From an uncultured Acidobacteriota bacterium (GTDB lineage Bacteria > Acidobacteriota > Thermoanaerobaculia > Multivoradales > SZUA-115), in assembly GCA_963805975.1 (NCBI GenBank), contig CAWDVR010000004.1, forward strand, positions 528,977-592,976: DNA of 64,000 nucleotides, given 5' to 3'. A program made the position numbers and the translations under genes. Under the pieces are notes generated by a model, which did not search any database, was not told the origin of the DNA, and saw nothing but the letters and a program-made list of their open reading frames with translations. Shown here piece by piece: positions 37,076 through 55,644 of the stretch. Positions within the stretch are counted from its first letter, which is position 1. Each line of letters opens with the position of its first letter.

Positions 37076-37677
37076 AGCGTGGTACCTCCGAGGAGCGGTT
37101 CGAGCTCACGGCCCAGCCGGTGCCGGGTGCGGTGTAGGATGACGGCGACCGCGGTCTGCGAGGTGCCGAGCATCTCGGCGATCTCGCGGTTGCCGTGGCC
37201 TTCGAAGTAACGGAGCGAAAAGATCTCGGCGGCGCGCGGGGAGAGGGCCGCCACCTTCGAGCGCAGCCAGCCGGCGAGCTCGCGGCGGCGGCGGTCTCCC
37301 TCGGGCCCGGCCTCCGGGGCCTCGGCCAGGTCCGCGGCCACCTCGTCCAGGTCCACCGCCCGGGCGCGTTTCCTGGCCCTAAGGAGGTCGAGGGCGGCGT
37401 TGACCGCTGCCCGGTAGAGATAGCTGGCGGCGCCGGAGGAGAGGTCGATCTCCTCCTCCCGCCGGATCAGCCGCGTGAACACGGTCTGCAGCACGTCCTC
37501 GGCGTCGGTCGCATTGCCCGTCACGCGGTAGGCGATGCGCAGGATGCGGGAGTGGTGCTGCTCGAAGAGCTCGCCCACCGCGGACTCTCCGGGAGCCTCG
37601 AAAGGCCCGGGAGGCGCGTGGGTGGGTTGGTGGACGGCGGCGATCAAGGGCTCCTCCTTCTTCGGGTCTCTAGCCAT
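37072..37677 (-). CDS. ECF RNA polymerase sigma factor
   Basis: DAEDVLQTVF, YLYRAAVNAALD, LSPR...FSLRYFEG...EIAEMLG. Confidence 0.93.
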   Translation of the reverse strand: MARDPKKEEPLIAAVHQPTHAPPGPFEAPGESAVGELFEQHHSRILRIAYRVTGNATDAEDVLQTVFTRLIRREEEIDLSSGAASYLYRAAVNAALDLLRARKRARAVDLDEVAADLAEAPEAGPEGDRRRRELAGWLRSKVAALSPRAAEIFSLRYFEGHGNREIAEMLGTSQTAVAVILHRTRHRLGRELEPLLGGTTL

Positions 37678-37726: not shown

Positions 37727-37753
37727 GGTTCGGTTCGAGCTCGCAATGCCCTG
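37727..37753. repeat. Left arm of the 27-bp inverted repeat flanking the integrated element
   Basis: GGTTCGGTTCGAGCTCGCAATGCCCTG matches the reverse complement of 52106-52132 at 26/27. Confidence 0.85.
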
Positions 37754-37947
37754 GGAGGCGCGCAGCGTTACACACGAGTAGGTACCTGGAACTCCCACGA
37801 AATCCCTTAAATCACTGCCACTGTTGACTTTGGAGTCGGACTGAGTATGTTCTTGTCCCATGAGCTACGCCCGAGTTGCGCGCCCACTGCATGCCCCTCG
37901 CATGCCGTGGAGCGTGCCCGAAGGCGGCCTCGAACAGGGAGGAGAGC

Positions 37948-39180
37948 ATGCGAGTCAAGTTCAGTAAAGCCACTCTTGCCAACGCGAAGCCGGGTCCGAC
38001 GCGATACCTTCTTCGAGATACCCGCACCGTGGGGCTCGCACTCAAGGTTGAGCCCTCGGGCACGCGGACCTTCGTCTTCGAGTACCGAGTCCCCGGCAAG
38101 CCGTCGCAGCGCTACAACATCGGCCGCTACGGCGAGCCCTGGACTCTGGAGCAGGCCCGGGCCGAAGCCGGACGATTGCGCTCACTCGTGGACCGTGGCC
38201 TCGATCCGCTGACCGAGCGGCGGAAAGAGGCCAGCGAGGGCCGCAGTCTGGCAGAGCTTGGCGAGATGTTCCTCGCTCACGTCGAGAAGTGTGGGCGCCG
38301 GCCTGCCACGCTCTACCGCTATCGCCGGCTCCTGAGGCAGTTCATCCTTCCGCGCCTGGGTCTGCTGCGAGTGGATCAGATCGGCGTCGAGCACGTCGAG
38401 CGCCTCCATGGGGCTCTTCAGAAGACTCCCGTCCAGGCCAACCTGGTCTTGGTGGTCCTGGGTTGCTGCTTGACGCTGGCGGAGCGTTGGGGGTGGATCC
38501 CTCGGGGCTCGAACCCGGTGCGGTGGGTGGAGCGCTATCCGAGGCGCAGGCGCGGGGAGAAGAAGGGCGTGATGCTCAAGCCCGAGCAGATGGCTCGGCT
38601 CTTGGCGGTACTGGACGAGGAGGAGCGAGCCGGGCGTGATCCGCTCGCGATCGGTGCGATGCGGCTTGCCTTCTGGACGGGGTGGCGAGCGAAGAGCGAG
38701 ATTCTGCCTCTCCAATGGGCGAACCTCGATCTCGAGGGCGGCGAGGCGAGGCTTCTCGGCACGAAACGGGCCGAGGAGGAGTACCGGATGCTCTGCGATG
38801 AAGCGGTCGCGGTGCTGCGGTCCCTGCCGCGCATCGACGGCAGCCCGTGGGTTTTCCCTGGGATCGATCCTGCGAGGCCGCGTCGAAACCTCCAGTGGTT
38901 CTGGGAGCGGGTGCGCAGGAAGGCCGGCCTGGTGGGCTTGGAGGAGCTAGGTAACTTCCGGCTCCATGACCTGCGTCACAACGTCGTCAGTTGGGACGTA
39001 TCGCGCGGGGTGAGCTTGAAGGTGGCGGGCGCCAACGTCGGCCACAAGTGCCAACAGTCCACCGAGGTCTACGCCCACTTCCTGCCGGCTCATCTAAGAG
39101 ACGCGGCCAACGCGCGCTCCCAGGCCATGCGGCAGGCCCTGGAGGCCGCGCAAGGCCGCAGCGAGCAGGAGGAGGTGTGA
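37948..39180 (+). CDS. Tyrosine integrase with N-terminal arm-binding domain
   Basis: RDTRTVGLALKV..SG.RTFVFEYR...IGRYG arm domain; TGWR, HDLRH, GH...TEVYAH catalytic motifs. Confidence 0.92.
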   Translation: MRVKFSKATLANAKPGPTRYLLRDTRTVGLALKVEPSGTRTFVFEYRVPGKPSQRYNIGRYGEPWTLEQARAEAGRLRSLVDRGLDPLTERRKEASEGRSLAELGEMFLAHVEKCGRRPATLYRYRRLLRQFILPRLGLLRVDQIGVEHVERLHGALQKTPVQANLVLVVLGCCLTLAERWGWIPRGSNPVRWVERYPRRRRGEKKGVMLKPEQMARLLAVLDEEERAGRDPLAIGAMRLAFWTGWRAKSEILPLQWANLDLEGGEARLLGTKRAEEEYRMLCDEAVAVLRSLPRIDGSPWVFPGIDPARPRRNLQWFWERVRRKAGLVGLEELGNFRLHDLRHNVVSWDVSRGVSLKVAGANVGHKCQQSTEVYAHFLPAHLRDAANARSQAMRQALEAAQGRSEQEEV

Positions 39181-39342
39181 GGATGCCCAGGTCCAACCAA
39201 CGCGCTCTAGCAGCCCGTGGGCCGCCTGGAAGCGATGTCTGCTTCGAAGACCGCGGCCCCCAAGCCGCACCCAGAAACCAAGCGGGCCGACCGAGTGCGT
39301 GAACACCCGGCCGACCCTAGCCGACCATGGAGCCGTAACCCC

Positions 39343-39780
39343 ATGACCGACCGAGAGCAGTCTACCGCTGCCGCAATACCTCTACCCGATCCCCCTCCAC
39401 CCCCCGAGGAGCCGCCCTCGCCGCCTTCGCCCTTGGATGCCTGGGAGGAGCTCCAGCCCATCCGAGAGACGTTCCTCCACCACGTGGGCAACGCCGAGAC
39501 TCAGCAGGCTCTCCGCGCGATTGGCGATTACTTCTACCAGGCCGTTCTCGAATGGCGGAACTTCCCCGACGCGGAAACACCGATCATCCTGCTGGAGCTC
39601 GAAGCCGTGGCCAAGGACGTGCGCTATCTCCAGGGCTTTCTGCACCACACGGTGGCCGACGACGGCCGGGGCACTCTGGCCGATGCCCGGTACGAGCGCT
39701 GGCTCAAGGTGAAGGCCGAGGAGTGGGCCGACACCCTCGGCGAGGTCGCCACCGAGATCGAGAAGGCGGTGGCGGAATGA
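39343..39780 (+). CDS. Hypothetical protein of the element (start uncertain, alternative 39235)
   Basis: Pro-rich N-terminus then helical domain; GC-type codon usage. Confidence 0.6.
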   Translation: MTDREQSTAAAIPLPDPPPPPEEPPSPPSPLDAWEELQPIRETFLHHVGNAETQQALRAIGDYFYQAVLEWRNFPDAETPIILLELEAVAKDVRYLQGFLHHTVADDGRGTLADARYERWLKVKAEEWADTLGEVATEIEKAVAE

Positions 39781-40498
39781 AGCCCGCCTGCCGGAGGTCC
39801 GAGCGCCTCCAGCGACCCACCTAGAAACACTCTCTACGCCGCCCGGGCCTCCAGGAAACAGGAGAGCCCGGCGGCTTCCCCCAGCTCTCCGAAACACGAC
39901 CTGTCGGACCACTGGAGGCCACCTGAGGACGCGCTGCCGGAGGGAGGGGACTCGCGAGGCCCGCCCCAAGCTGCGGCTGGAGTGGCCGTCCCTCGCAGAC
40001 TCGGGTACGCGCCAGGCGCTCCGCACGCCCCACGCCGGCGGCCCCCCTCACCTCGGCCCTGCCGCCGTCCTGGGGCGTGCTGTGGGTCGCTGTCCGGGAA
40101 TGGCCATTCCCGGACCTGTCGCTCGGCCAGCCTAGCCTTGGCCCTCGCTGTGCGAGGGCTTGGACATAACGCGTGGCGCTATGTCAACTTGGGCGGGGTG
40201 TCAGGGCCTGCGGCCGGCCCCGGCTTCGGCATCTCGCCGGACACTCTATGTCAGTGTTTGTTCGCGGATTCTGAGTCAGGATCAGCAGAGTCGCTCTAAG
40301 CTCAAAGGATCTATTTACGCCGGCTTGATCGAGTGGCCTATCGGGCCTAGATTGACGGCATACGCTTAGCATGCGGTCTGGCGGACGACAGAAGGCTAGT
40401 TAGCGGACTAGCCCGACAGGGCGATCCTGACTCGCGGCGGGGCGAAGATGTCAGGGGGCGAGAACTATCCTCGCCCGAACTCGGTCCGTGTCGCAGTC

Positions 40499-40569
40499 AC
40501 CCAACGGGTTAGCATCAGTAGCGGAACGCGCGTTCTGCGGTTCTGTCTGCTGCAGGCCCCGAGTTGGCC
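40499..40569 (-). other. attC-like integron cassette recombination site
   Basis: Minus strand GGCCAAC-TCGGGGCCTGCAGCAGAC...GCTACTGATGCTAACCC-GTTGGGT, 35 bp after the stop of 40604-40795. Confidence 0.55.
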
Positions 40570-40603
40570 GACCTTTGCGATTCGAGACGATCGAACGATT
40601 CCC

Positions 40604-40795
40604 CTACCGGTCCTTGTTGCCCTTGCGGTACTTGTCGCCAGCCGCCTTATCTGCCCCATCCTTACTGACGCCTTTTCCAGAGTAGGTTGCGCCCCCTTTG
40701 TGGATCGTAGTCTTGTGAGCTTCGCCGATTCCCGTCCCGAGGAACGACGCGCTCATACGGCTGACCTTGTCCGGGCGACTACCCTTTTTGCTCAT
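40604..40795 (-). CDS. Small basic hypothetical protein (63 aa), cassette-like
   Basis: AAGGAGG RBS before ATG; followed by an attC-like site. Confidence 0.6.
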   Translation of the reverse strand: MSKKGSRPDKVSRMSASFLGTGIGEAHKTTIHKGGATYSGKGVSKDGADKAAGDKYRKGNKDR

Positions 40796-40882
40796 GGAAT
40801 CCTCCTTTGATCACCGGCCGAGGGTATCACCCTCTCTGAGGCTGTGGCTTGCTGGCCACCGCTTTCTTAGACCGCTCACTTC

Positions 40883-41437
40883 TCATCGCAGTATGGCAAT
40901 TCGGGCTACAGACGCGACCAAGCTGCCGGCGCCAACCGCGATGGGTACCCACCGCTCAAGAACGGCACGCACTGAAAGAACTCGGAAGTGCTGATCGATC
41001 TCGGCACGAAAGAGCCGTGTGAACTCAGCGCGCTTCCCGCCCAGCCAGACCTCGAACTCTTCAGGATTCTCGTCTGGTTCCGGCGCGAGATTCGTGTACT
41101 GAGCGGCTAGCCTTGCGGCGGAACTTGAAAAGACACGCTCGCGGTCCATGGCCCAAGCCTTTAGATCGGCCGTGCTGTAGATCCAGAATGCCGTCAGTAA
41201 GTAGATCTGCACCGCGCAGAGAACTCCAAGCAGTCTGCCGGTATCACCGGCCGAGAGTTCGACGCCCAATGCATCGATCCTGGAGGGGATCACCCCTCCA
41301 ACCGCGACCACGAGTTGCGTAACGCTGACGGTTAGCAATGCCCGCCTCTCTTTGCGCGACTCCTCTGACAGAGGATCTACGAGGGCCCTCGCCTCAGTGA
41401 TTTCGGCCCGTTCTTCCTTTTCCCAGATCTTCGGCAT
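40883..41437 (-). CDS. Hypothetical membrane protein (about 3 TM), cassette-like
   Basis: Hydrophobic segments; ATG with AGGA RBS directly after GTTGGCC. Confidence 0.65.
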   Translation of the reverse strand: MPKIWEKEERAEITEARALVDPLSEESRKERRALLTVSVTQLVVAVGGVIPSRIDALGVELSAGDTGRLLGVLCAVQIYLLTAFWIYSTADLKAWAMDRERVFSSSAARLAAQYTNLAPEPDENPEEFEVWLGGKRAEFTRLFRAEIDQHFRVLSVRAVLERWVPIAVGAGSLVASVARIAILR

Positions 41438-41452
41438 CGGTTCCTCATTGCC

Positions 41453-41514
41453 GGCCAACGGCTACCCGTCTGATCGCGTGGCGTCAGCCGCTCGCTCCAG
41501 CCGGTTGATTGGGC
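41453..41514 (-). other. Degenerate attC-like site
   Basis: Minus strand GCCCAAT-CAACCGGCTGGAGCG...CGATCAGACGGGTAGCC-GTTGGCC, overlapping the upstream gene end. Confidence 0.45.
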
Positions 41515-42323
41515 ATCTTTAGGGCGCCCTTCTCTTCAGGCCAAGCTCGCTCAAACCAAGAATAGTGAGCTCCGTCCGGATCCTCGAAGTCTTCGCACGC
41601 CACCCAGATCTCCGCCTCGGGCCTCCTCGCTAGGCTCGCGACCAAGGCTCTCCACCAGGCTTCCCCGGCGTGTGCAACGGAGCCTTGCGGATCAAGCAGC
41701 ACGACTTGGCGATCGTTGCTGTACGCCGCAAACTTTTTCATGGCCGAGGCAAGGAGTCTCTCGAGCTCAGCTGTGAGCTCCGCGGGAATCGGCCTCGGCG
41801 CCTGCCACATCTCCAGCGGCAGCAGGAATCTCACGCTGGTCTCGTGGGCGTACTCATCAAGATCTGATTCGCGAAGGTGCCGCAGACTCCAGTTCGGCTG
41901 GCCCCTCTTCTCGATCCCCTGGCCAGCCTCCAGAACCGACCAGTGCTCTGCAACGATTCGTGCCATCTGCCCCACCGTCTCCTCAATCTCCGCTCTCCGA
42001 GTAGGCCGATCGCCGGATATTGCGAGCTCATAAGGGCCATCGAGCACGGCAGTTGGGAGAGCTGCACGAAGGGCACCAATCAGGGCATGATCTGACGAAT
42101 GTCGGACTACGTACTCGGCCGGCCACACAAGGCACTTCCGCTCGATAACCATCCGACCCCTGCATCGGTCGCAGTACAGTGCTTCAGGCTGGGGCGTATC
42201 CCGGATCCGTATGTCGAGACAAGTGACGTGCTCATACGCAGAGCCCTCGACATCGTTAAGCTGTTCGACTAAGGGCTGAACGCGCCAGAACTCGCAACCG
42301 CCACTCTCGGGTAAACAGCTCAT
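41484..42323 (-). CDS. Hypothetical protein, possible PD-(D/E)xK nuclease fold
   Basis: PQPEALY...MVIERK pattern; 279 aa. Confidence 0.55.
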   Translation of the reverse strand: MSCLPESGGCEFWRVQPLVEQLNDVEGSAYEHVTCLDIRIRDTPQPEALYCDRCRGRMVIERKCLVWPAEYVVRHSSDHALIGALRAALPTAVLDGPYELAISGDRPTRRAEIEETVGQMARIVAEHWSVLEAGQGIEKRGQPNWSLRHLRESDLDEYAHETSVRFLLPLEMWQAPRPIPAELTAELERLLASAMKKFAAYSNDRQVVLLDPQGSVAHAGEAWWRALVASLARRPEAEIWVACEDFEDPDGAHYSWFERAWPEEKGALKMPNQPAGASG

Positions 42324-42880
42324 TAGTCCCCCACGCACGTCGCGCCCAAATCAGTGCTCTGCATTGGACGGTCCAGGCCTCCAGGATCCTTGAGATCCTC
42401 ACTTGTTCGTCGAGGTCCTAGAGGGGTTAGGGCTATGTCCATGCGAATCGATTTCGGATGCCAGTACTTAGCAGCATTCTACGCCTACTTGAATAAGAGT
42501 CAACGAGGCCGAGAGCCCTGGCTTGGTGCCTCGCCCCAAGACCCCGCCTGAGCTCGCTATCGCTCGGCTCTTCCGGCTGCATGAAGAGCGACTGAAATAC
42601 GGTTCACATTTGAACCTTGGTCTCTCTGTCTCACCTCTGGTACCTCTTTGCCCCATGCGCGGAGCCTGGATACCCAACCTCTCGGAGCTTGTCCGTTCAG
42701 CCCTCTTGGAGCGTCCCTCTCAGCGACCGCGGGGGGCCGAGGACGAATCTCGCCCCCTACAGCAAGCTCCTGCGTCCAGCCTCCTCGCCGTCGGTCGGTC
42801 GCTGCGAGTCAACTTCTTGCCGCCGCCTGGGCTCCGAAGAGGAGCCACCGGCAGCAAAGCATTGCCTTGGAGGGTAAGCG

Positions 42881-43156
42881 ACGGATTTCTCCTCTGGCTC
42901 GGGCTCACCGTTCCTGACGACGAAGCAAGCCGCCGCGTACCTGCGCCTGGAGCCCAGCACGCTCGAGAGCTGGCGTTCCGTCGGAGGCGGCCCTGTGTTC
43001 CACAAGCTCGGCGGGCGCATCTACTACACCCGCGCCGACCTCTAGGCTTGGATTGAGTCCCGGCGTTGCCGATCGACTGCCGAGCACTGGGCGAGAAGGT
43101 CAAGGGATCGTCCTACCGAGCGCTCCGGCTTCCTCGGTCGAACCTCGAAACCGTAA
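42881..43156 (+). pseudogene. Excisionase-like HTH (HTH_17/AlpA-like) pseudogene
   Basis: FLTTKQAAAYLRLEPSTLESWRSVGGGPVFHKLGGRIYYTRADL*AWIESRR; in-frame TAG at 43043; ACG instead of ATG after GGAGG. Confidence 0.8.
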
Positions 43157-43208
43157 CGGTCGGGTGCTGCCGGCCGGTGCCGCTCCGAAGGACTCGGAGG
43201 AGTCGGCC

Positions 43209-46200
43209 TCACCGCCGCAGGCGTACGCGGGCCTCCTCGCCTTCTGCCAGCACGTCTCGAATCCAGTGACCTGCCCGCTGCGCGATGCTGCGCCCGAGAG
43301 ACAAGCTCCAGGTCACGGCGATGTCGAAGGCACGGGGAGCAGCTTCCGCCGAAGCGCGAGCCAGGTTGCCCAAGTGGGAGGCTGCCGCATCGGGTGGCAA
43401 TCCACGACTGGAGGCGACCTCGACCCAGGCCGCTCGCCAGGCCAGCTCTGAGACGTCCCGTGGCGGCCGGCCGGGCTCGGGAAGCTCTGCGAAGGCACGC
43501 TGTTGGCCGTCGAGGTGCCGGAGCCAGGTCACGGCCTCGGCCGAGTTGGCGAAGAGCCTGACGGCCTCCTCTGGCCGCAGAGCCTCGCCTCCGGCGAGCC
43601 GCTTCGCCCGTTCCAGGATCTCGGGGGTCAACCGCGCCAGCGCGTCGAGGCCGGCGCGCGGGTCCTCGGTCGGCCTGGCCATGGGCAGTGTGATTCGGTG
43701 AGCGGGGATCTCGATCAGGAGAGCCGCATTCAGCCGGCGCAGGGCCTCGGGGGAGAGGTCCCCGGCAGCAACCCGCGAGGTGATCTCCGCCAACCGCTCG
43801 CGGGCCGTGGCCGATTGGATGGCGAGGGCCTCTTCCACGGCTGCCCGCTCCGAAGACTCGACCCGCCACCAGCCGTAGCCGCGAAGCGCCTCGGCAGGCT
43901 CCTGGCGCGTGAGCTCACGGAGCTTCTGCTCCGCACTCGCCGGCCGGGCCTCTCGCGCTTCCGCGCGCTCCAGTAGGAGCTGGGCGACGGTTCGCTCCTG
44001 CAACGACTCCACGGCTTCCGGCCAGCGCTGGGCAAGCCCTCCTTCTGCGCGCAGCCTCGTCCAGTGCGCCTCCAGCTCGCCGAGGTGGGCGCGACACTCG
44101 GCGACGGAAGTCGAGGCGCCTGCCGGCGCCTGGGGCGAAAGCCCAAGCTGGATCAAGAGCCGCGCTTCCCGCCGAATCAATCGCTCGTAAGCGTTCCAGG
44201 TCTCGTCGGGCCGCTCGCGTTCCAGGAGTGCCCAGCCGAAGCGCTCTCGATGGAGGGAGAGCTGTACCAAGGCCAGCCGCGAGTACGCATGCTCGGCCTG
44301 CTCCATCTCTCCCCGAGCGAGACTGTAGGTGTGAGCGAGCGCCTGATAGGCGGAGATCCTCTCCAGTGACGGGGCCGCTTCGATGCTCGCCGCGGCCGTC
44401 TCCACCCGCTGCCAAGCCGAAAACATCTTCCCGCGCGCATCCTCGAAGGCTTGCCGAGCCTCGCGAAGCCTGCCGGCAAGCTCGCCCTCGACTACCAGCA
44501 ACCGGTCTCCAGCCTCCCGCGATCCTCCTGGCTCCCGGGCCAGTGCTTCGGCGATCACCTCCCGATTGACCCTCTGGGCTCGTGCGAGAAAGTCGTCCAC
44601 GGGCTCGTAGGTCCCAGCGGCGCCTGGGTCGTGAGGAGACCGCCGCTCTGGAAGTGACAAACGAGCTTCGATGCCGCCCAGACGGCCCGGAGATGGAAAG
44701 TCAACGCGGGAGTAGTGGAGCGGGATCTCCGCGCGAGCGAGAGGCGCTTCGAGGCGTGGAGTGTCCAAACGTCGTAGCCGCTCGTGTAGATCCTCGCGGC
44801 GTTCGCTGCGCAGCCCGTCGAGCCAGGGCCGCGACGCCGAGAACGGCTCCTCCCGTACCTCGGCAAGCCTCACTCGGACCCGCTCGCCAGCCGCTTCGAA
44901 CGAGGTTCCGGGGAGTCGGATGGCATCTCGGAATATGCCCCGCGGCTCTGCGATGCCGAAGCGGTCCGCGAGGCCCTGGCGCAACGCCTGCTCCTCGTCC
45001 TGCGAGAGGGCCTGATGGCTTCGTAGCCACAGGTCATAGCGCTCGCCCGCACGAACCAGGACGGCCGGCTCGAAGCCATGATGGCGCAGAGTGACCACCT
45101 GCTCGGCGGTCAAGTCGCGAAAGGCCACCCTGCGGGACCGGTCCTCGCCGATCCGCCGCGCCAGAATCGCAGCCGCTCCCGAGCGCTCTGCCCGGCGGGC
45201 CTCGGTGAGCGCCTGTTGGAGGGTCAGGCTGCCCCGCGATGGGTCGAGCAAGCGAGCCTCGACCCGCTGCAAACCCTCTGCGGCCTCCTTGGGGCTCAAG
45301 GGCAGCACGATGTAGCTTCCTCCCGGCATGGAGCGGTCCGTGCGAAGCCAGTCGAGCGAGACGAGCTGCCGGGCCGGCAGCTCCGGCCGTTGGTTGAGCT
45401 GCCGCAGATCCTCGGCGCCGTCCGGCTCGTGTTGCAGAGCCTTGCGAAGCCTCCGAGGGCGGGAGCCCTGCTCGGGTGAGCCTTGGGAGGGAGCACTACC
45501 TGCCAGACGAAGCACCTGCTCCCGGTCGCGACCGGGATCGTAGGCGAGCTGGAAGGTGGAGACGAGCTTGCCTGCGCGGAAGGCTCGACCGAGCTGCGAC
45601 CCCTTGAAGGCTATGCCATCGCGCGAGAAGGAGATCCCTCTTAGCTCACCATCCTTGTCCAAGAGTACGTGCGTCGAAAACCCTCGGGCTCGTAACGTCG
45701 CCAGAAACTCAGCAAGGGTCCGTGCGTCCCTCGCCACCTGGGCCACTTCCACCTGAAACACGGCCCGCATCGACTCCTCACCCTGCGCGGCGCGCTTCAT
45801 CTCGCCTTGGCTGGGACTCTTGAGGAACGCCGCCTCGGGCGGTTCGACTCGCACGAGGTTCCATCGGTTCTCGATCTCGCGGGCGATCCGTACACAGCGC
45901 AGCTTGTCGAAAGCCTCGGAGATTGGCTGGCCCTCCCAGGTCGTCGGTGTGGTCACGAGGTGCACGTGGTCGTTGTCGGTGTCCTTGTGGAGGAAGGCCA
46001 CGTAGGGCGCTTCGCCGTAGCCCATCCTTTGGAGGAAGAAACGCACCGCCTCTCGCATCTCGTCGTCCGGCCGATGCTCGCCGGTCGCGTACGAGAGGAC
46101 GAAATGCTTCACGAACTGCTTCTTCCTGGACCGATAGGTACTGTTGACATCCGTGATCCAGCTCGCCCACTCGCTGGGGGTGGAGCCTGGGATGTTGGCG

Positions 46201-46292
46201 TCCAAGAGAAAGGCGTTGGGTCGTGCCGTGCGCCCAAGGTAGTCGATCAGCCGCCGAGGCTGCGAGCCCACCTTGCACAGCTTCACGATCAC
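43209..46292 (-). CDS. MOBP-type relaxase with probable RepB-primase-like central domain and long helical tail
   Basis: N-terminal LIDYL, HFVLSY, HKDTDNDHVHLV (HUH), FKGSQLGRAF; DLTAEQV...GFEPAVLV...YDLWLR. Confidence 0.87.
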   Translation of the reverse strand: MIVKLCKVGSQPRRLIDYLGRTARPNAFLLDANIPGSTPSEWASWITDVNSTYRSRKKQFVKHFVLSYATGEHRPDDEMREAVRFFLQRMGYGEAPYVAFLHKDTDNDHVHLVTTPTTWEGQPISEAFDKLRCVRIAREIENRWNLVRVEPPEAAFLKSPSQGEMKRAAQGEESMRAVFQVEVAQVARDARTLAEFLATLRARGFSTHVLLDKDGELRGISFSRDGIAFKGSQLGRAFRAGKLVSTFQLAYDPGRDREQVLRLAGSAPSQGSPEQGSRPRRLRKALQHEPDGAEDLRQLNQRPELPARQLVSLDWLRTDRSMPGGSYIVLPLSPKEAAEGLQRVEARLLDPSRGSLTLQQALTEARRAERSGAAAILARRIGEDRSRRVAFRDLTAEQVVTLRHHGFEPAVLVRAGERYDLWLRSHQALSQDEEQALRQGLADRFGIAEPRGIFRDAIRLPGTSFEAAGERVRVRLAEVREEPFSASRPWLDGLRSERREDLHERLRRLDTPRLEAPLARAEIPLHYSRVDFPSPGRLGGIEARLSLPERRSPHDPGAAGTYEPVDDFLARAQRVNREVIAEALAREPGGSREAGDRLLVVEGELAGRLREARQAFEDARGKMFSAWQRVETAAASIEAAPSLERISAYQALAHTYSLARGEMEQAEHAYSRLALVQLSLHRERFGWALLERERPDETWNAYERLIRREARLLIQLGLSPQAPAGASTSVAECRAHLGELEAHWTRLRAEGGLAQRWPEAVESLQERTVAQLLLERAEAREARPASAEQKLRELTRQEPAEALRGYGWWRVESSERAAVEEALAIQSATARERLAEITSRVAAGDLSPEALRRLNAALLIEIPAHRITLPMARPTEDPRAGLDALARLTPEILERAKRLAGGEALRPEEAVRLFANSAEAVTWLRHLDGQQRAFAELPEPGRPPRDVSELAWRAAWVEVASSRGLPPDAAASHLGNLARASAEAAPRAFDIAVTWSLSLGRSIAQRAGHWIRDVLAEGEEARVRLRR

Positions 46293-46690
46293 GGCGACTC
46301 TCCAGCCGCCCTCTCGCCACCCAGCACGGCGAAGATTGTCTCCAGGAGCAGCCGAAGCCTCTCGAGGGTCGGAGCCAGGGCCTCCGGCGCCCGATGGGTG
46401 TAGGTGAGGACGAGAAGTTGGTTGAGATTGTTGCCCAGCCGGTTGAGCTCCCCGATCAGGCGCAGGTCGACCGCGGAGCGTGCGGGGCGCACTCGGTGTC
46501 GCAGTCCTAGCTCTCGGAGGTAGGAGGAGACCGCCAACCCTGCCGCAGTAGCCGACTCCTCAAGCGTAGCGAGCTCCGTGGGTGAGAGCCGAACTCGACA
46601 ACCGAGGTTGCGCCGCTCAGGCTCGGGCAACTGGGGCCGGCCTCGCTGGCGAGGTCGGACACCCGATCCTTGGCGCAGTGTGTCGCTCAA
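46289..46690 (-). CDS. mobC: Mobilisation accessory protein (ribbon-helix-helix)
   Basis: VRLSPTE...GLAVSSYLRE; ELNRLGNNLNQL; overlaps the relaxase start. Confidence 0.88.
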   Translation of the reverse strand: MSDTLRQGSGVRPRQRGRPQLPEPERRNLGCRVRLSPTELATLEESATAAGLAVSSYLRELGLRHRVRPARSAVDLRLIGELNRLGNNLNQLLVLTYTHRAPEALAPTLERLRLLLETIFAVLGGERAAGESP

Positions 46691-46974
46691 CTCGTCGCCA
46701 CTCCGGGACCGGGGCAGGAGCGCTCCTCACTTTGCGGCTGGTCAAATTTACGGCCGTAAACGCGGCCCGATAGTCGAGGGGTCCAGCCTGAAAAATTTTG
46801 GCCCCAAAATTCGCACAAGTACCTCAGCGAGAGCTGTTCGGTTAGGACTCGCCGGCGTGAAGTTGAAATCGGTCCGCTTCCGTTTACGGTTCGTAAATCT
46901 GCGCCATCGTCTCGGCGAGCGCGGTGGGTCAGAACTCGCCGCAGAAGCCTCTTCCCGAGCGGAGCGAGCGCTTC

Positions 46975-47057
46975 CGGGGGTCCAGGGGCTCGCCCCTGGC
47001 AAGCGGCCCGTGAGCTTGCGAGCGGGGGTTTTTCGTGCAACGAAAAAACAGCTTGCT
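46975..47057. other. Putative oriT
   Basis: CCAGGGG-ctcg-CCCCTGG hairpin and TTTTTCGT-gca-ACGAAAAA inverted repeat followed by CAGCTTGC (nic-like), upstream of mobC. Confidence 0.55.
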
Positions 47058-47347
47058 CGTCTGCTCCGGATGCGCTCACGAAGGCAGGCTACGGTGGCTT
47101 CGACAAACCGCGCAACTGTCGGACCGAGGAAGAAAGAAGAGGTTGTATCGAGCTCCTGGAAACCTGATGAATTTCACTCCGTCGAGGAAGCGGCAGGCAC
47201 CTCGCTCCAAGGATGCTTACGGGCGCTGAAGACCAATTGAGAGGAGACGGTGGCCCCCAGGCCCGACCCTTGGTGTGTAACTAATGGGCAGCAATGCAGC
47301 ACGCACGTGGAGGTGGGTTGGTTTGGATTTGCTAGCATGCGGCAATC

Positions 47348-50300
47348 GTGAACAACCTGGCGGCGGCAGAGAGGCGGGTCGAAGATGCGTTGCGCACCAG
47401 ACTGGAACATCTGGACCTCGGAGACCTAGCCCTAGAGCGCTTACCCACGCGCCTGCGAGAGCTCACTCATCTCCGAGTCTTGGCTCTGGGATGCCTCCGA
47501 CTGAGAGACGATGGGACTTTCGAGTGGGACAGCGATAGACAGCCTCCGTCCTTTTCCGACCTGTCAGCCTTGGCCGGGCTCCAAGGACTTCAGAGTCTGA
47601 ACCTCAGCTACTGCGGGGGCGTGACGGACCTGTCTGCCTTGGCCGGGCTCCAAGGCCTCCAGAGGGTGGACCTCAGCTACTGCGGGGGCGTGACGGACCT
47701 GTCTGTCTTGGCCGGGCTCCAGGGCCTCCAGAGCCTGAACCTCAGCTTCTGCAAGGGCGTGACGGACCTGTCTGTCTTGGCCGGGCTCCCAGGCCTCCAG
47801 AGCCTGTACCTCAGCGGCTGCGAGGGCGTGACGGACCTGTCTGTCTTGGCCGGGCTCCCAGGCCTCCAGAGCCTGTACCTCAGCGGCTGCGAGGGCGTGA
47901 CGGACCTGTCTGTCTTGGCCGGGCTCCCAGGCCTCCAGAGCCTGGACCTCAGCGGCTGCGAGGGCGTGACGGACCTGTCTGTCTTGGCCGGGCTCCAAGG
48001 CCTCCAGAGCCTGAACCTCAGCGGCTGCGAGGGCGTGACGGACCTGTCTGTCTTGGCCGGGCTCCAAGGCCTCCAGAGCCTGTACCTCAGCGGCTGCGCG
48101 GGCGTGACGGACCTGTCTGTCTTGGCCGGGCTCCAAGGACTCCAGAGCCTGAACCTCAGCTCCTGCGCGGGCGTGACGGACCTGTCTGTCTTGGCCGGGC
48201 TCCAAGGACTCCAGAGCCTGAACCTCAGCTTCTGCAAGGGCGTGACGGACCTGTCTGTCTTGGCCGGGCTCCCAGGCCTCCAGAGCCTGTACCTCAGCGG
48301 CTGCGAGGGCGTGACGGACCTGTCTGTCTTGGCCGGGCTCCCAGGCCTCCAGAGCCTGTACCTCAGCGGCTGCGAGGGCGTGACGGACCTGTCTGTCTTG
48401 GCCGGGCTCCCAGGCCTCCAGAGCCTGGACCTCAGCGGCTGCGAGGGCGTGACGGACCTGTCTGTCTTGGCCGGGCTCCAAGGCCTCCAGAGCCTGAACC
48501 TCAGCGGCTGCGAGGGCGTGACGGACCTGTCTGTCTTGGCCGGGCTCCAAGGCCTCCAGAGCCTGTACCTCAGCGGCTGCGCGGGCGTGACGGACCTGTC
48601 TGTCTTGGCCGGGCTCCAAGGACTCCAGAGCCTGAACCTCAGCTCCTGCGCGGGCGTGACGGACCTGTCTGTCTTGGCCGGGCTCCAAGGACTCCAGAGC
48701 CTGAACCTCAGCTTCTGCAAGGGCGTGACGGACCTGTCTGTCTTGGCCGGGCTCCAAGGCCTCCAGAGCCTGGACCTCAGCTACTGCCGGGGCGTGACGG
48801 ACCTGCCTGGCTTGGCCGGGCTCCAAGGCCTCCAGAACCTGGATCTCAGCTTCTGCCGGGGCGTGACGGACCTGTCTGTCTTGGCCGGGCTCCAAGGCCT
48901 CCAGAGCCTGGACCTCAGCTACTGCCGGGGCGTGACGGACCTGTCTGCCTTGGCCGGGCTCCAAGGCCTCCAGAGCCTGAACCTCAGCTCCTGCCCGGGC
49001 GTGGCGGACCTGTCTGCCTTGGCCGGGCTCCAAGGCGTCCAGAGCCTGAACCTCAGCGGCTGCGAGGGCGTGACGGACCTGTCTGCCTTGGCCGGGCTCC
49101 AAGGCGTCCAGAGCCTGAACCTCAGCGGCTGCGAGGGCGTGACGGACCTGTCTGCCTTGGCCGGGCTCCAAGGCCTCCAGAGCCTGAACCTCCGTAACTG
49201 TAAGGGCGTGACGGACCTGTCTGGCTTGGCCGGGCTCCAAGGCCTCCAGAACCTGAACCTCAGCTCCTGCCCGGGCCTGATGGACCTGTCTGCCTTGGCT
49301 GGGCTCCAAGGCCTCCAGAGCCTCGACTTCAGCGACCGCCAGGGTGTGACGGACCTGTCTGCCTTGGCCGGGCTCCAAGGCCTCCAGAGCCTGAACCTCA
49401 GCGACTGCCTGGCCGTGACGGACCTGTCTGCCTTGGCTGGGCTCCAAGGCCTCCGGAGCCTGAACCTCTACTCCTGTCGGCCGCCGATCGAAAACACCGT
49501 TCTTCGGAACCTGGTGGCAAGCCCTCGGCTAGCGAGCCTCATCTGCGACGAGGGGGAGAGCATGCCGCGAGAGGTTCTCTCGCATGAGTCCGATGAAGAC
49601 TGTCTCCCACGTCTCCGTAGCTTCTTCGCTGAGATCGACCGAGGCGCAGAGGCGGAGCGGGAAGTGAAAGTGATCCTGCTAGGCAACGGCTGTGTTGGGA
49701 AGACTCAGCTCTGTCGTCGGTTTCGCGATCAGCCTTTCGACGAAGCGATTGGATCGACTCACGGAGTCCAGATCTGGCGGGACGAGCTCCGACTCCCATC
49801 GCGTGGCGAGCCAGAGAATGCATTTCAGGTGAACTGGTGGGACTTCGGCGGACAGGACATCTACCACGGCACGCATGCGCTTTTCCTACGCAGTCGCGCC
49901 GTGTTCCTGCTTCTCTGGACCCCACAGCTCGAGAACCGCGACGAATACACGGAGCAGGGCATCCCGCTACGCAACCAACCCCTTGCCTACTGGCTGGACT
50001 ACGTCCGTACTCTGGCTGGCGACGGCAGCCCCGTGATTGTGGTGCAAAGCAAGTGCGACACCTTCAAGCACGAGCTCTCAGCTCCGAATAGGCCCGAGGG
50101 ACTCGAATTCTTCCGCTGTTGCGCCTACAGTGCCGTCACGGATTTTGGCAGAGAAGTTCTCGAAGTCCAGCTCCGCGAAGCGGTGCGCTTCCAGCTTGAG
50201 AAAACCGGCTCTCTAGCCATCGGACACGCTCGCGCTGAGGTTCGCCGCCGGCTCTATCAGATGCGCAGCGAGGACCAGGAACAAAGACCAGAGGATCGTC

Positions 50301-51835
50301 GGCACCGCACTCTAACTCTGGACGAGTTCCGCAGCCTCTGCGAGGAGGTGGGCGGCATTGCCTCGTGGGAGCATGCCCTCGACTACTTCCACCACACCGG
50401 CGTGGTCTTCTATCGCCCGGATCTCTTCTCCAATCGCATTCTCCTCGATCAGGACTGGGCGCTCGAAGCGATCTACACCGTATTTCATCGCGGCCGAGCC
50501 GCGCGCTGGCTGCGGGACTCTGGGCGCTTCAGCCGCGAGGATCTCTCGATGATGGCCTGGCAACAGCATTCGGTGGAGGAGCAGAAGCTCTTCCTCGGGC
50601 TGATGGAGAGCTGCGGCGTGTGCTTCGCATGCGGTACCGCTTCCCTGGGGGAGACGATCTATGCGGCGCCGGACCTGTTACCACTGTTTTCGGCTGTGCA
50701 AGGGCGGCTCTTCGGCTGGAAGGACGACCCCCAAGCACCGTCCTTGTGGCTCGAGTATCAGTTTTTTCACCCCGCAGTGATTCGCGGCCTGATGAGCGCG
50801 ATCGGCCGCCAGGCGGGAGAGGCCGCCGAGTATTGGAAGTATGGGTTCCGGCTCTGGGATCGCAAGCGAGATGCTCAGATCCTGATCCAGCAGCATGACA
50901 CGAGCACCAACGAGACACCGGGACAGGGAGCCCTGGAGCTGACGGCGCAGGGCCGTGATGCACTCGGCCTTCTCCGCGGGATCTGGAAGGAGATCCGGCA
51001 ACGTCAGATTGGCGAGCCGCCCGAGGAGTTCCTGAGCCTGGAGGGCGTGACCGTTTCGCGCAGCGCCATGGCCAACGCCATGGAGGGCCAGACGCACGCG
51101 ACGGATGGACGAGTGGTGCCTGTTGCGCCGTTCGCAGCCTTCTTCGAGGACCGCGAGCCCGAAGCCACCGGCGGGAGACGGCCCACCGAACTCCGGCTCG
51201 ACTTCGATCCCGGTATCCCTCCAGCGGGGGAGAAACTGCCGGAGGTGTTCATCTCCTACGCTTGGGGGGACGACAGCATGGAAGGACGTGTGCGGACCGA
51301 GGTGGTTGAGCGTCTGTGCGCGGCGTTGAAGATGGATGGCTTTGCACCGGTGCGGGACCGAGAGGCTCTGCGGCCGGGCGAGCTCATCTCTGCCTTCATG
51401 AAGCAAGCGGCAAGAGCCAACCACGTCGTGGCCGTGATCAGCGACAAGTACCTGCGCTCACCGTACTGCATGTTCGAGATCCACAGGATCTACCAGCAGT
51501 GCGAAGCCGAGGCGGAGAGGCTGGCAAGGCGCGTCCTGCCGATCGTCTTACCCGACGTTCGGCTGGCGACTTTCGAGGAGCGAGCCCCGTATCTGCGCCT
51601 GTGGTCTCGGCGTGAGAAGACGCTCGGGAAGCTCATCCGCGACCCGGAGCTGCATCCCAGTGAGGCCTCCTGGACCGAGTACCGCCTTGTTCATGACTTC
51701 GCCCACCACGTCGACTCAATCCTCGGCTTCATCCAAGATGTTCTGATGCCCCGGAGGCTTGAGGTTCAGCTCGAGAATGGCTTCGAAGCCGTGAGGGAGG
51801 CCCTACGAAGGCGGATCGCGAGGGATGGAGCGTAA
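47348..51835 (+). CDS. Roco protein: 28 LRRs, Roc GTPase, COR and C-terminal TIR domain
   Basis: VKVILLGNGCVGKT, STHGV, WDFGGQDIYHGTH, SKCD; COR YFHHTGVVFY...LDQDW; TIR VFISYAW...ISDKYLRSPYCMFE. Confidence 0.93.
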   Translation: MNNLAAAERRVEDALRTRLEHLDLGDLALERLPTRLRELTHLRVLALGCLRLRDDGTFEWDSDRQPPSFSDLSALAGLQGLQSLNLSYCGGVTDLSALAGLQGLQRVDLSYCGGVTDLSVLAGLQGLQSLNLSFCKGVTDLSVLAGLPGLQSLYLSGCEGVTDLSVLAGLPGLQSLYLSGCEGVTDLSVLAGLPGLQSLDLSGCEGVTDLSVLAGLQGLQSLNLSGCEGVTDLSVLAGLQGLQSLYLSGCAGVTDLSVLAGLQGLQSLNLSSCAGVTDLSVLAGLQGLQSLNLSFCKGVTDLSVLAGLPGLQSLYLSGCEGVTDLSVLAGLPGLQSLYLSGCEGVTDLSVLAGLPGLQSLDLSGCEGVTDLSVLAGLQGLQSLNLSGCEGVTDLSVLAGLQGLQSLYLSGCAGVTDLSVLAGLQGLQSLNLSSCAGVTDLSVLAGLQGLQSLNLSFCKGVTDLSVLAGLQGLQSLDLSYCRGVTDLPGLAGLQGLQNLDLSFCRGVTDLSVLAGLQGLQSLDLSYCRGVTDLSALAGLQGLQSLNLSSCPGVADLSALAGLQGVQSLNLSGCEGVTDLSALAGLQGVQSLNLSGCEGVTDLSALAGLQGLQSLNLRNCKGVTDLSGLAGLQGLQNLNLSSCPGLMDLSALAGLQGLQSLDFSDRQGVTDLSALAGLQGLQSLNLSDCLAVTDLSALAGLQGLRSLNLYSCRPPIENTVLRNLVASPRLASLICDEGESMPREVLSHESDEDCLPRLRSFFAEIDRGAEAEREVKVILLGNGCVGKTQLCRRFRDQPFDEAIGSTHGVQIWRDELRLPSRGEPENAFQVNWWDFGGQDIYHGTHALFLRSRAVFLLLWTPQLENRDEYTEQGIPLRNQPLAYWLDYVRTLAGDGSPVIVVQSKCDTFKHELSAPNRPEGLEFFRCCAYSAVTDFGREVLEVQLREAVRFQLEKTGSLAIGHARAEVRRRLYQMRSEDQEQRPEDRRHRTLTLDEFRSLCEEVGGIASWEHALDYFHHTGVVFYRPDLFSNRILLDQDWALEAIYTVFHRGRAARWLRDSGRFSREDLSMMAWQQHSVEEQKLFLGLMESCGVCFACGTASLGETIYAAPDLLPLFSAVQGRLFGWKDDPQAPSLWLEYQFFHPAVIRGLMSAIGRQAGEAAEYWKYGFRLWDRKRDAQILIQQHDTSTNETPGQGALELTAQGRDALGLLRGIWKEIRQRQIGEPPEEFLSLEGVTVSRSAMANAMEGQTHATDGRVVPVAPFAAFFEDREPEATGGRRPTELRLDFDPGIPPAGEKLPEVFISYAWGDDSMEGRVRTEVVERLCAALKMDGFAPVRDREALRPGELISAFMKQAARANHVVAVISDKYLRSPYCMFEIHRIYQQCEAEAERLARRVLPIVLPDVRLATFEERAPYLRLWSRREKTLGKLIRDPELHPSEASWTEYRLVHDFAHHVDSILGFIQDVLMPRRLEVQLENGFEAVREALRRRIARDGA
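47555..49486 (+). repeat. 28 x 69-bp coding tandem repeat (23-aa LRR) with a 483-bp block duplication
   Basis: Unit TDLSxLAGLQGLQSLxLSxCxGV; units 4-10 (47762-48244) repeated as units 11-17 (48245-48727). Confidence 0.95.
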
Positions 51836-52105
51836 GTTCACCTTCCGCCGGACGCGATGAGAACGGGCCTTGATGACACCCTGCTGCCCTACTGAAGGGT
51901 CGCCAGAGAAGTAGACATCGACCGCGACTTGAGAACCCTCAAGATCGCATGCTGAGCGCATGCCGATGTCGCGCGGCAAGAGAATGCCTTCGCCGCCATC
52001 TCAGGAAGTTATAGATTCGATGGGGGCTTAGCGTGGCCCTCATCCGAGCCGTTCATCTCATACTGAGATCGCAGCGTTACCCGAAGGGGGCGTCGAGCAC
52101 CGCAT

Positions 52106-52132
52106 CAGGGCCTTGCGAGCTCGAACCGAACC
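52106..52132. repeat. Right arm of the 27-bp inverted repeat
   Basis: CAGGGCCTTGCGAGCTCGAACCGAACC. Confidence 0.85.
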
Positions 52133-55587: not shown

Positions 55588-55644
55588 GGTCGGGCTCCTC
55601 GAAGCGTCGCGCGGCGGCGCTGCGGACTAGAACGAGCGGTGGGA

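Follow-up and report, generated by a model that had tools for sequence, protein, structure and literature searches.

An integrative mobilizable element within a dispersed palindromic repeat, from an integrase lineage that probably left tRNA-Thr for multicopy repeats

Results

The island interrupts a palindromic repeat. A 14.3-kb island in the window (the 64,000-nucleotide stretch of DNA analyzed here) lies within one copy of a dispersed palindromic repeat, where it was likely inserted by its own lambda-type tyrosine integrase. We also consider it likely that this integrase lineage left the tRNA-Thr anticodon stem-loop for multicopy repeats. A sequence-only reading of this DNA had proposed a REP/MITE-like repeat as the target of an arm-type tyrosine integrase; the repeat family, the integrase domains, the junctions of related elements, and the integrase tree all support that proposal. 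Features are listed in Table 1.

The direct repeats at the two junctions do not extend past 11 bp. The flanking arms (37727 to 37753 and 52106 to 52132) match at 26 of 27 positions, and the left arm matches the 5.36-Mb genome twice (≤1 mismatch), in both cases at the window's own arms. Excising the 14,309 bp between the direct repeats yields a 97-bp empty site with folding energies of -70.4 kcal/mol (RNA) and -39.4 kcal/mol (DNA); sequence comparison and folding thus bear out the arms and the rebuilt palindrome of the earlier reading. Its placement of the att core in the palindrome loop holds in part: the core is within the structure but, at positions 35 to 45 of the 97, off-centre, and it falls on the 5' side of an inner, imperfectly paired stem rather than in a simple terminal loop. 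Neither half of the repeat is copied on the element beyond the 11 bp, and insertion leaves the repeat unrestored. ARAGORN found no tRNA in the window, as had been claimed. Neither an empty site in the same species nor a circular form or excision junction was seen. No RNA run containing the sequence was listed among sequencing runs, and four small-share DNA runs contained only diverged pieces, none of them crossing the junction, and are uninformative on excision and habitat.

Table 1. Features of the element and its surroundings (window coordinates), and insertions complete in having both ends on one contig
Feature	Location	Strand	Remarks
Host ECF sigma factor gene	37072..37677	-	Adjoins left junction; Pfam Sigma70_r2/r4_2
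Left half of host repeat (family A)	37727..37760	+	27-bp arm and beginning of conserved centre
Integrase-proximal junction	37761..37771	+	11-bp direct repeat; first 7 bp, putative strand-exchange overlap
Sigma-70-like promoter	37824..37851	+	Towards integrase; kept in related left ends; consensus match only
Paired GCATGC motif	37888..37906	+	Likely arm-type integrase binding site
Tyrosine integrase	37948..39180	+	410 aa; Arm-DNA-bind_3 and Phage_integrase
Conserved ORF	39343..39780	+	145 aa; downstream of integrase in related elements too
Weak internal right-end-like copy	40286..40379	-	Variant arm motif, inverted orientation; nhmmer E 0.056
Two cargo ORFs	40883..42338	-	191 and 284 aa; lowest-GC part; no family match
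MOBP-type relaxase	43209..46292	-	1027 aa; PF03432
MobC/NikA-like accessory protein	46289..46690	-	PF21983
Conserved non-coding segment	46946..47131	.	Upstream of mobC; candidate oriT, proposed from conservation
LRR-Roc-COR-TIR cargo protein	47348..51835	+	1495 aa
Paired GCATGC motif, far end	51946..51964	+	Likely arm-type site
Far junction	52070..52080	+	Second 11-bp direct repeat copy
Right half of host repeat	52081..52132	+	Remaining conserved centre and 27-bp arm (52106-52132)
Complete insertion	The window		14,309 bp between 11-bp repeats
Complete insertion	G001:C210		5,250 bp; repeat arms re-pair over 27 bp
Complete insertion	G000:C2 16.2-19.8 kb		3,607 bp; 7-bp repeat; arms re-pair over 18 bp
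Complete insertion	G000:C6 6.9-9.4 kb		
Complete insertion	G000:C2 90-154 kb		

The sigma factor locus. The ATG of the ECF sigma factor gene lies 84 bp from the direct repeat, confirming the distance first reported, and this start is conserved in the sister species G001. The insertion does not separate the gene from the sequence above the ATG that is conserved with G001 (about 30 bp), and the sole sigma-70-like promoter at the left end points towards the integrase. These observations do not support the suggestion that the insertion alters sigma expression. A relative lacking the element had been expected to show the joined palindrome. The orthologous sigma locus of G001 has neither element nor palindrome, so that expectation did not hold there, but the palindrome is missing because the repeat subtype is specific to the host genome (G000). 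In the sigma interval of another genome, G004, we found only a chance loose match to the motif.

Target repeat families. The empty site is one member of host repeat family A, which has 22 cores (20 intact), or 37 when a variant is included. Family A copies are dispersed stem-loops of about 100 bp and are mostly intergenic; a rough gene caller placed 9 of the 37 within an ORF. Each combines a conserved centre with copy-specific complementary ends; the centre does not vary between copies, and paired arm positions change together, with double changes in 18 of 29 pairs. The arms are therefore not carried by the element and stay with the host, as the earlier reading required. The subtype found in the window is absent from 60 relatives. 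Comparison of three family A copies with orthologous G001 loci gave one clean gap of about 110 bp, with no evident target-site duplication, one different short spacer, and one 9-kb insert.

Families A to D, the targets of this integrase and its close relatives, together make up about 0.15% of the G000 genome. Family A has no conserved terminal inverted repeats, its arms differing among copies, and does not fit the definition of GTAG-type REPs (a 20- to 40-bp palindrome with terminal GTAG); family C, the target of a paralogue, does carry a terminal GTAG tag. The centre of family B presumably resembles those of ERIC and RPE repeats. We do not claim kinship between families A and B because their similarity is not significant (926 of 2,000 shuffles score equally well). 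A RAYT (Y1) transposase was rejected as the mobilizer of the repeats, since G000 (96% complete) has no PF01797 match.

Gene content. The element combines a tyrosine integrase, a MOBP relaxase, and an LRR-Roc-COR-TIR cargo protein. The integrase catalytic set (R247-K273-H340-R343-H366-Y375) is intact. The 145-aa ORF that follows it had no match in Pfam, NCBIfam, or PADLOC and no usable match in the Atlas; it is a candidate accessory or directionality factor. The relaxase assignment comes with scores below the cut-offs of the NCBIfam relaxase models, and the cargo protein matched PADLOC through its TIR domain only. Five further locations in the genome share the sequence of the candidate oriT. 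For a mating-pair system, a single family was searched, and the genome has no PF03135 match. With an intact recombinase, flanking attL/attR repeats, and a relaxase accompanied by MobC and a candidate oriT, the 14.3-kb stretch is, judged by its gene content, an integrative mobilizable element (IME).

Overlap, half-sites, and arm motifs. Matching yGCATGC-N4-CGCATGCC motifs stand inside both element ends, as the sequence-only reading stated, among seven matches genome-wide. Across the ends compared, the distance from arm motif to overlap is 120 to 121 bp at 10 of 11 left ends (one deviates) and 123 to 125 bp at 8 of 12 right ends (four deviate), a constancy that is partly fitted because the overlap heptamers were picked from the edges of direct repeats. 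Six different overlaps occur across the clade junctions. In each of the five insertions with both ends on one contig (Table 1), the overlaps are identical at the two ends, and the 7-bp repeat of a second family A insertion lies at the position equivalent to the window's integrase-proximal junction. The junctions fit a 7-bp overlap at a fixed distance from the arm motif, as in anticodon-loop integration, and their comparison points to inverted half-sites around the overlap and arm sites on the element.

A matrix built from element-side half-sites only, and ranked against all same-overlap sites in G000, placed four true sites 1st of 2,982, 1st of 879, 4th of 970, and 6th of 970. It explains the window's own site less well, with 77 of 2,694 sites, including 13 in repeats, scoring at least as high. 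It failed on family C (107 of 242) and on family D (677 of 2,061).

The integrase clade. Mapping the att sites of close homologues had been suggested, and all nine integrases at ≥69% identity adjoin half of a palindromic repeat (family A, one; B, six; C, one; D, one). Members with genomic context come from just two genomes, both in one genus, so these loci are not independent. None of the nine has a tRNA motif upstream. Of 37 more distant integrases, 32 are preceded by a tRNA T-arm motif at a distance of no more than 420 bp; the other 5 show none, and for 2 of these 5 the flank is truncated. Members of the clade are 70 to 85% identical, with several copies per genome. When the clade alignment was used to scan metagenomic (80 loci) and viral (3 loci) sequences, no further close member with an upstream flank came to light (the best, at 59% identity, was truncated), and a search of proteins clustered at 50% returned the clade as one top representative that has no genomic context.

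In a 24-row tree, built without a mixture model and omitting 10 proteins without context and 10 outgroup rows, the repeat-targeting integrases form a single branch (support, 99/98) nested within tRNA-targeting relatives; a larger, quick tree of 44 rows also supports the clade (99). The integrases nearest to it target tRNA-Thr and share its arm motif and spacing. This topology indicates that the clade descends from tRNA-targeting integrases.

Discussion

We propose that, on the circular form of the element, the integrase would use the GCATGC pairs as its arm sites, would also bind degenerate 8-bp inverted half-sites flanking the 7-bp overlap, and would exchange strands with a repeat copy carrying an identical overlap. 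In the repeats, dyad symmetry would provide the half-sites, much like an anticodon stem. An occasional mismatched insertion followed by excision could leave a new overlap on the element and so open a new repeat family to it. The relaxase and oriT would let the excised circle use the conjugation machine of another element.

Integron integrases recognize folded attC sites, and the integrases studied here might likewise recognize a cruciform or single-stranded hairpin, so that sequence would matter little and all long palindromes mismatched or looped at the centre would serve. Four families without demonstrated sequence kinship are hit, C and D are unexplained by half-site sequence, the two heptamers used in family B form the opposite strands of a 7x7 internal loop and were both used in one copy, and the family C direct repeat begins at a 7-nt hairpin loop. 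Nevertheless, we regard a folded target as unlikely: homology-dependent duplex exchange predicts that the two ends of an insertion share one overlap, as they do in all five single-contig cases, the overlap is partly paired in A and within a stem in D, and arm-type sites with a matching domain are typical of duplex-acting, lambda-like integrases. A broader version, to which we give somewhat more credence while still doubting it, is that these tRNA-derived integrases now act as generalists on palindromic DNA: they would read folded shape (a 7-nt loop or mismatch in a hairpin or cruciform) rather than sequence and would freely exchange one 7-bp overlap for another. If so, cargo islands would move among unrelated repeat families like transposons while keeping site-specific excision, and their many copies would reshuffle the chromosome.

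Six overlaps among integrases 70 to 85% identical, with several copies per genome, could also reflect low, Tn916-like specificity, the repeats being merely where insertions survive. Such an explanation is very improbable given that all nine left ends lie in repeats that occupy about 0.15% of the genome (the G000 figure) when other intergenic DNA would be equally harmless, that the same repeat position is reused across elements and genomes, and that overlaps match at both ends. We hold it just as hard to believe that these integrases use a functional, multicopy gene for a non-coding RNA in the way that others use a tRNA gene. The invariant centre and covarying arms would suit one, but DNA palindromes are also expected to show covarying arms, and the element neither rebuilds the repeat nor copies a half beyond 11 bp. 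No Rfam family reached its gathering score on eight loci with intact copies; the weak scores were to eukaryotic miRNA hairpin models only, often on both strands. Together with the dispersal of the repeat and the absence of its subtype from the 60 relatives and from orthologous loci of the sister species, this leaves the unannotated structured RNA raised in the earlier reading unsupported. Insertion into a dispersed DNA repeat by a duplex-acting integrase is the reading we prefer.

On that reading, a change of integrase target can be traced within one genus and among proteins 70 to 85% identical: the lineage would have started at a single tRNA-Thr anticodon loop and now uses four or more families of multicopy repeats. 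Such a compact natural series could be used to test how tyrosine recombinase specificity changes and what role target structure plays. By targeting repeats, a single lineage of site-specific integrases would gain many places in each genome to land without harm, and a native integrase with 10 to 70 such sites could suit multicopy integration.

Comparison with known systems

Integrase, relaxase, MobC, and cargo without mating-pair genes are shared with MOBP-relaxase IMEs (PMC5704250), but the type of target differs; a term search of that review gave no occurrence of "palindrom," "REP sequence," "repetitive," or "MITE." In the portions available, PMC10111431, PMC13626063, and PMC10969869 contain nothing on repeat-targeting integrases. 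One island-mapping pipeline, as described in the accessible part of PMC12884075, drops attB sites with several genomic copies, and repeat-targeting elements may be under-reported because of this.

Families A and B resemble the ERIC, RPE, and CIR MITE-like repeats, to judge from the sections of PMC2229807 at hand, in being dispersed stem-loops of 100 to 150 bp, and family A likewise is present or absent at orthologous loci. The GTAG tag of family C recalls GTAG REPs (PMC3733652, in part). Family A differs from palindromic MITE-like repeats in having copy-specific arms instead of conserved terminal repeats, in a genome where no Y1 transposase was found.

REP-targeting insertion sequences (IS1397, IS621, ISPpu9/10, and ISRm22) also use multicopy extragenic palindromes as safe sites; the excerpts available of PMC1525189 and PMC3184786 describe them as small, with IS3, IS110, IS4, IS256, and IS5 transposases. 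Here, in contrast, a tyrosine integrase acts on islands of 2.5 to 64 kb with arm sites, a relaxase, and cargo. In the literature searched, REP targeting is confined to IS transposases, although supplementary island tables, which lay outside the search, could contain cases; tyrosine-integrase islands would join these users of palindromic-repeat safe harbours.

The closest parallel is with tRNA anticodon-loop integrases, in which the anticodon loop serves as a 7-bp overlap flanked by dyad half-sites (PMC8371274, in the passages available, citing Williams 2002 and Campbell 2003); in GInts, the overlap changes on excision (PMC5385486, likewise in part). As far as those passages of PMC8371274 go, the domain layout, the 7-bp overlap with inverted half-sites, and the arm-motif distance are shared, and the tRNA-Thr members form the sister branch with a common GCATGC arm motif. 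Unlike them, the integrases described here use a dispersed multicopy palindrome and no tRNA attB, have several copies per genome and four target families, and, in the window's subgroup, split their target without restoring it.

Targets of the integrase lineage

Comparative sequence evidence from two genomes, the one containing the window (G000) and that of a sister species in the same genus (G001), gives good support to the view that the feature is real: an integrase lineage of integrative mobilizable elements (IMEs) appears to have exchanged tRNA-Thr for palindromic repeats of several families as its target. Homologues of the window integrase are present six times in G000 and at five loci in G001 (69 to 81% identity); of 300 genomes searched from the order, only 3 gave a match at E ≤ 1e-120. 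All nine integrases with at least 69% identity adjoin half of a palindromic repeat; the nine are not independent samples, being drawn from two genomes of a single genus. The repeat belongs to family A for the window integrase, to family B on contigs C5 and C6 of G000 and C210, C56, C8 and C57 of G001, to family C, a GTAG-tagged REP-like unit, on C2 of G000, and to family D on C21 of G001. Matches to family B number 71 in G001 and 5 in G000, where families C and D count 41 units and 11, respectively.

A 24-row tree placed the nine repeat-adjacent integrases on one branch (support 99/98), with two tRNA-Thr integrases as sister, and a quick tree of 44 rows agreed on the repeat-adjacent branch. 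A tRNA T-arm motif lies at most 420 bp upstream in 32 of the 37 rows that are more distant, which represent 36 distinct genes; the motif is missing from the other five, two of which are truncated. A 3.2-Mb genome, G030, encodes six integrases (L038-L043) that are 42 to 48% identical to that of the window, each adjoining a tRNA fragment (Ala, Arg, Lys, or Thr).

Ends and gene content of the element

The 11-bp direct repeats, complementary arms, and paired GCATGC motifs (likely arm-type integrase binding sites) of the sequence-only reading were all confirmed, as was the absence of a tRNA from the 64-kb window. With the 14,309 bp separating the direct repeats removed, the remaining sequence forms a 97-bp hairpin. 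The att core, previously assigned to its loop, in fact lies off-centre, along the 5' side of an inner stem that is imperfectly paired, rather than in a terminal loop.

Coordinates of the element, neighboring features, and related loci (window positions unless a contig is named)
Feature	Position	Strand	Details
Left arm	37727-37753		26/27 positions complementary to right arm
Left direct repeat	starts 37761		11 bp
Left arm motif	starts 37888		paired GCATGC
Tyrosine integrase	between direct repeats		410 aa; arm-binding domain, intact catalytic residues
Conserved ORF	between direct repeats		145 aa; no family match
Two further ORFs	between direct repeats		no family assignment
MOBP relaxase and MobC	between direct repeats
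Candidate oriT	upstream of mobC		conserved non-coding segment
Right-end-like segment	40286-40379	-	inverted, internal
LRR-Roc-COR-TIR cargo gene	47348-51835	+
Right arm motif	starts 51946		paired GCATGC
Right direct repeat	starts 52070		11 bp
Right arm	52106-52132
Group II intron	55627-57636		directly upstream of ABC permease gene
Intron reverse transcriptase/maturase ORF	55879-57471
Family A repeat	G000 C1:341872 and 36 other places		invariant asymmetric centre, GNA-loop mini-hairpins; near-perfect, copy-specific arms
Cargo ORF of sister element	G000 C2:3959-8344		1461 aa; internal repeats
64-kb same-clade element in family C REP	G000 C2:90264-154420		distal half with host-like GC, perhaps captured chromosomal DNA
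Orphan element ends and a half family B copy	G000 C1:1491199-1493090, C3:379341, C6:74276		apparent partner junction on another contig

The element has the anatomy of an IME, with a GC content of 64.8% versus ~70% for the genome; no VirB4-family gene was found in G000. The closest named records (L031 and L032) carry the title Thermoanaerobaculia bacterium. The cargo protein, whose LRR region contains near-exact tandem duplications and which PADLOC matched at the TIR domain only, is a possible NLR-like defence protein. The internal segment resembling the right end (E 0.056, with a variant arm motif) is possibly the relic of a nested element.

The ATG of the neighboring sigma factor gene lies 84 bp from the direct repeat. 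Conservation with G001 extends ~30 bp above this ATG, remaining on the host side of the junction, and the sole sigma-70-like site at the left end is directed into the integrase. The altered sigma expression suggested by the sequence-only reading thus found no support.

The host palindrome

When the rebuilt empty site was compared with its own genome, it matched many intact copies. The strict core pattern occurs at 22 places in G000 (two of them halves), or 37 when a variant centre is included. Each copy has a ~40-bp conserved centre and its own complementary arms of up to 36 bp, and double changes occur at 18 of 29 consensus pairs among 20 copies. The strict core was found in none of 60 relatives; the variant centre has six matches in G001, and one or two loose matches turned up in G002 and G006. 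Of three copies tested against G001, one proved to be a clean ~110-bp insertion. The repeat matched no Rfam family at threshold, and no Y1 transposase was found in G000. We conclude from the conserved centre with copy-specific arms, the distribution, the clean insertion, and these two negative searches that the target is a young, dispersed, MITE-like palindrome belonging to the host, its arms lying outside the element rather than traveling with it. Of the two targets first proposed, a REP/MITE-like repeat or a structured RNA, the former was borne out and the latter found no counterpart in Rfam. The joined palindrome expected in a relative lacking the element was not seen: the orthologous sigma-DUF481 interval of G001 holds another gene in place of both element and palindrome, so the support for the empty site comes from paralogous copies and not from an ortholog.

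Junction geometry and target recognition

We defined the overlap, the 7-bp stretch presumed to undergo strand exchange, as the first 7 bp of each direct repeat; with these heptamers, which we chose, and a partly fitted spacing, the end of the overlap lies 120 to 121 bp from the arm motif at 10 of 11 left ends, and its start lies 123 to 125 bp from the motif at 8 of 12 right ends. Several direct repeats are just 7 to 9 bp long, which fixes the spacing despite the choice of heptamers. A second split family A copy (G000 C2) has a 7-bp repeat, arms that re-pair over 18 bp, and a 3,607-bp remnant in which an ArsR-like ORF was recognized by eye. The family D pair, spread over two G001 contigs, has a 7-bp repeat, and a complete 5,250-bp element on G001 C210 has a 9-bp repeat and copy-specific arms that re-pair over 27 bp. 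One family B copy on G000 C6 was used at both symmetric positions; in family C, the 7-nt hairpin loop is the start of the direct repeat. In the tRNA-Thr sisters, the heptamer found at the same spacing is the anticodon loop. Like tRNA-type elements, three G001 elements bear a longer target copy (up to 31 bp).

Overlaps are identical at both ends in five of five single-contig insertions, which fits homology-dependent, lambda-type exchange and favors recognition of the target as duplex. A matrix built from 12 element-side half-sites and scored against all same-overlap sites in G000 ranked the true family B sites and the second family A site 1/879, 4/970, 6/970, and 1/2982. It ranked the window site lower (77/2694, 13 in repeats) and left the family C and D sites unexplained. 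That the integrase instead recognizes a folded target seems to us improbable; we keep it in view because four repeat families with no demonstrated kinship serve as targets. Duplex recognition is in our judgment very probable: the repeat's own symmetry would supply degenerate inverted half-sites, and new overlaps would bring the change of target. Where the integrase cleaves, its binding to the arm sites, and the excision and transfer of the element are predictions from sequence.

Most contig ends of the G000 assembly lie within these elements, and partner junctions appear on other contigs, which suggests that recombination between copies rearranged the genome.

Comparison with known systems

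Full-text literature searches of mostly freely accessible main texts showed, among the papers listed, no tyrosine-integrase island targeting such repeats, and term look-ups in PMC5704250, PMC10111431, PMC13626063, PMC10969869, PMC3733652, and PMC12884075 likewise gave none in the text covered. According to the portion of PMC8371274 consulted, tRNA anticodon loops serve as 7-bp overlaps with flanking dyad half-sites. REP targeting is known for IS3, IS110, IS4, IS256, and IS5 elements, as described in the sections consulted of PMC1525189 and PMC3184786; those are IS transposable elements, whereas the element described here is a tyrosine-integrase island.
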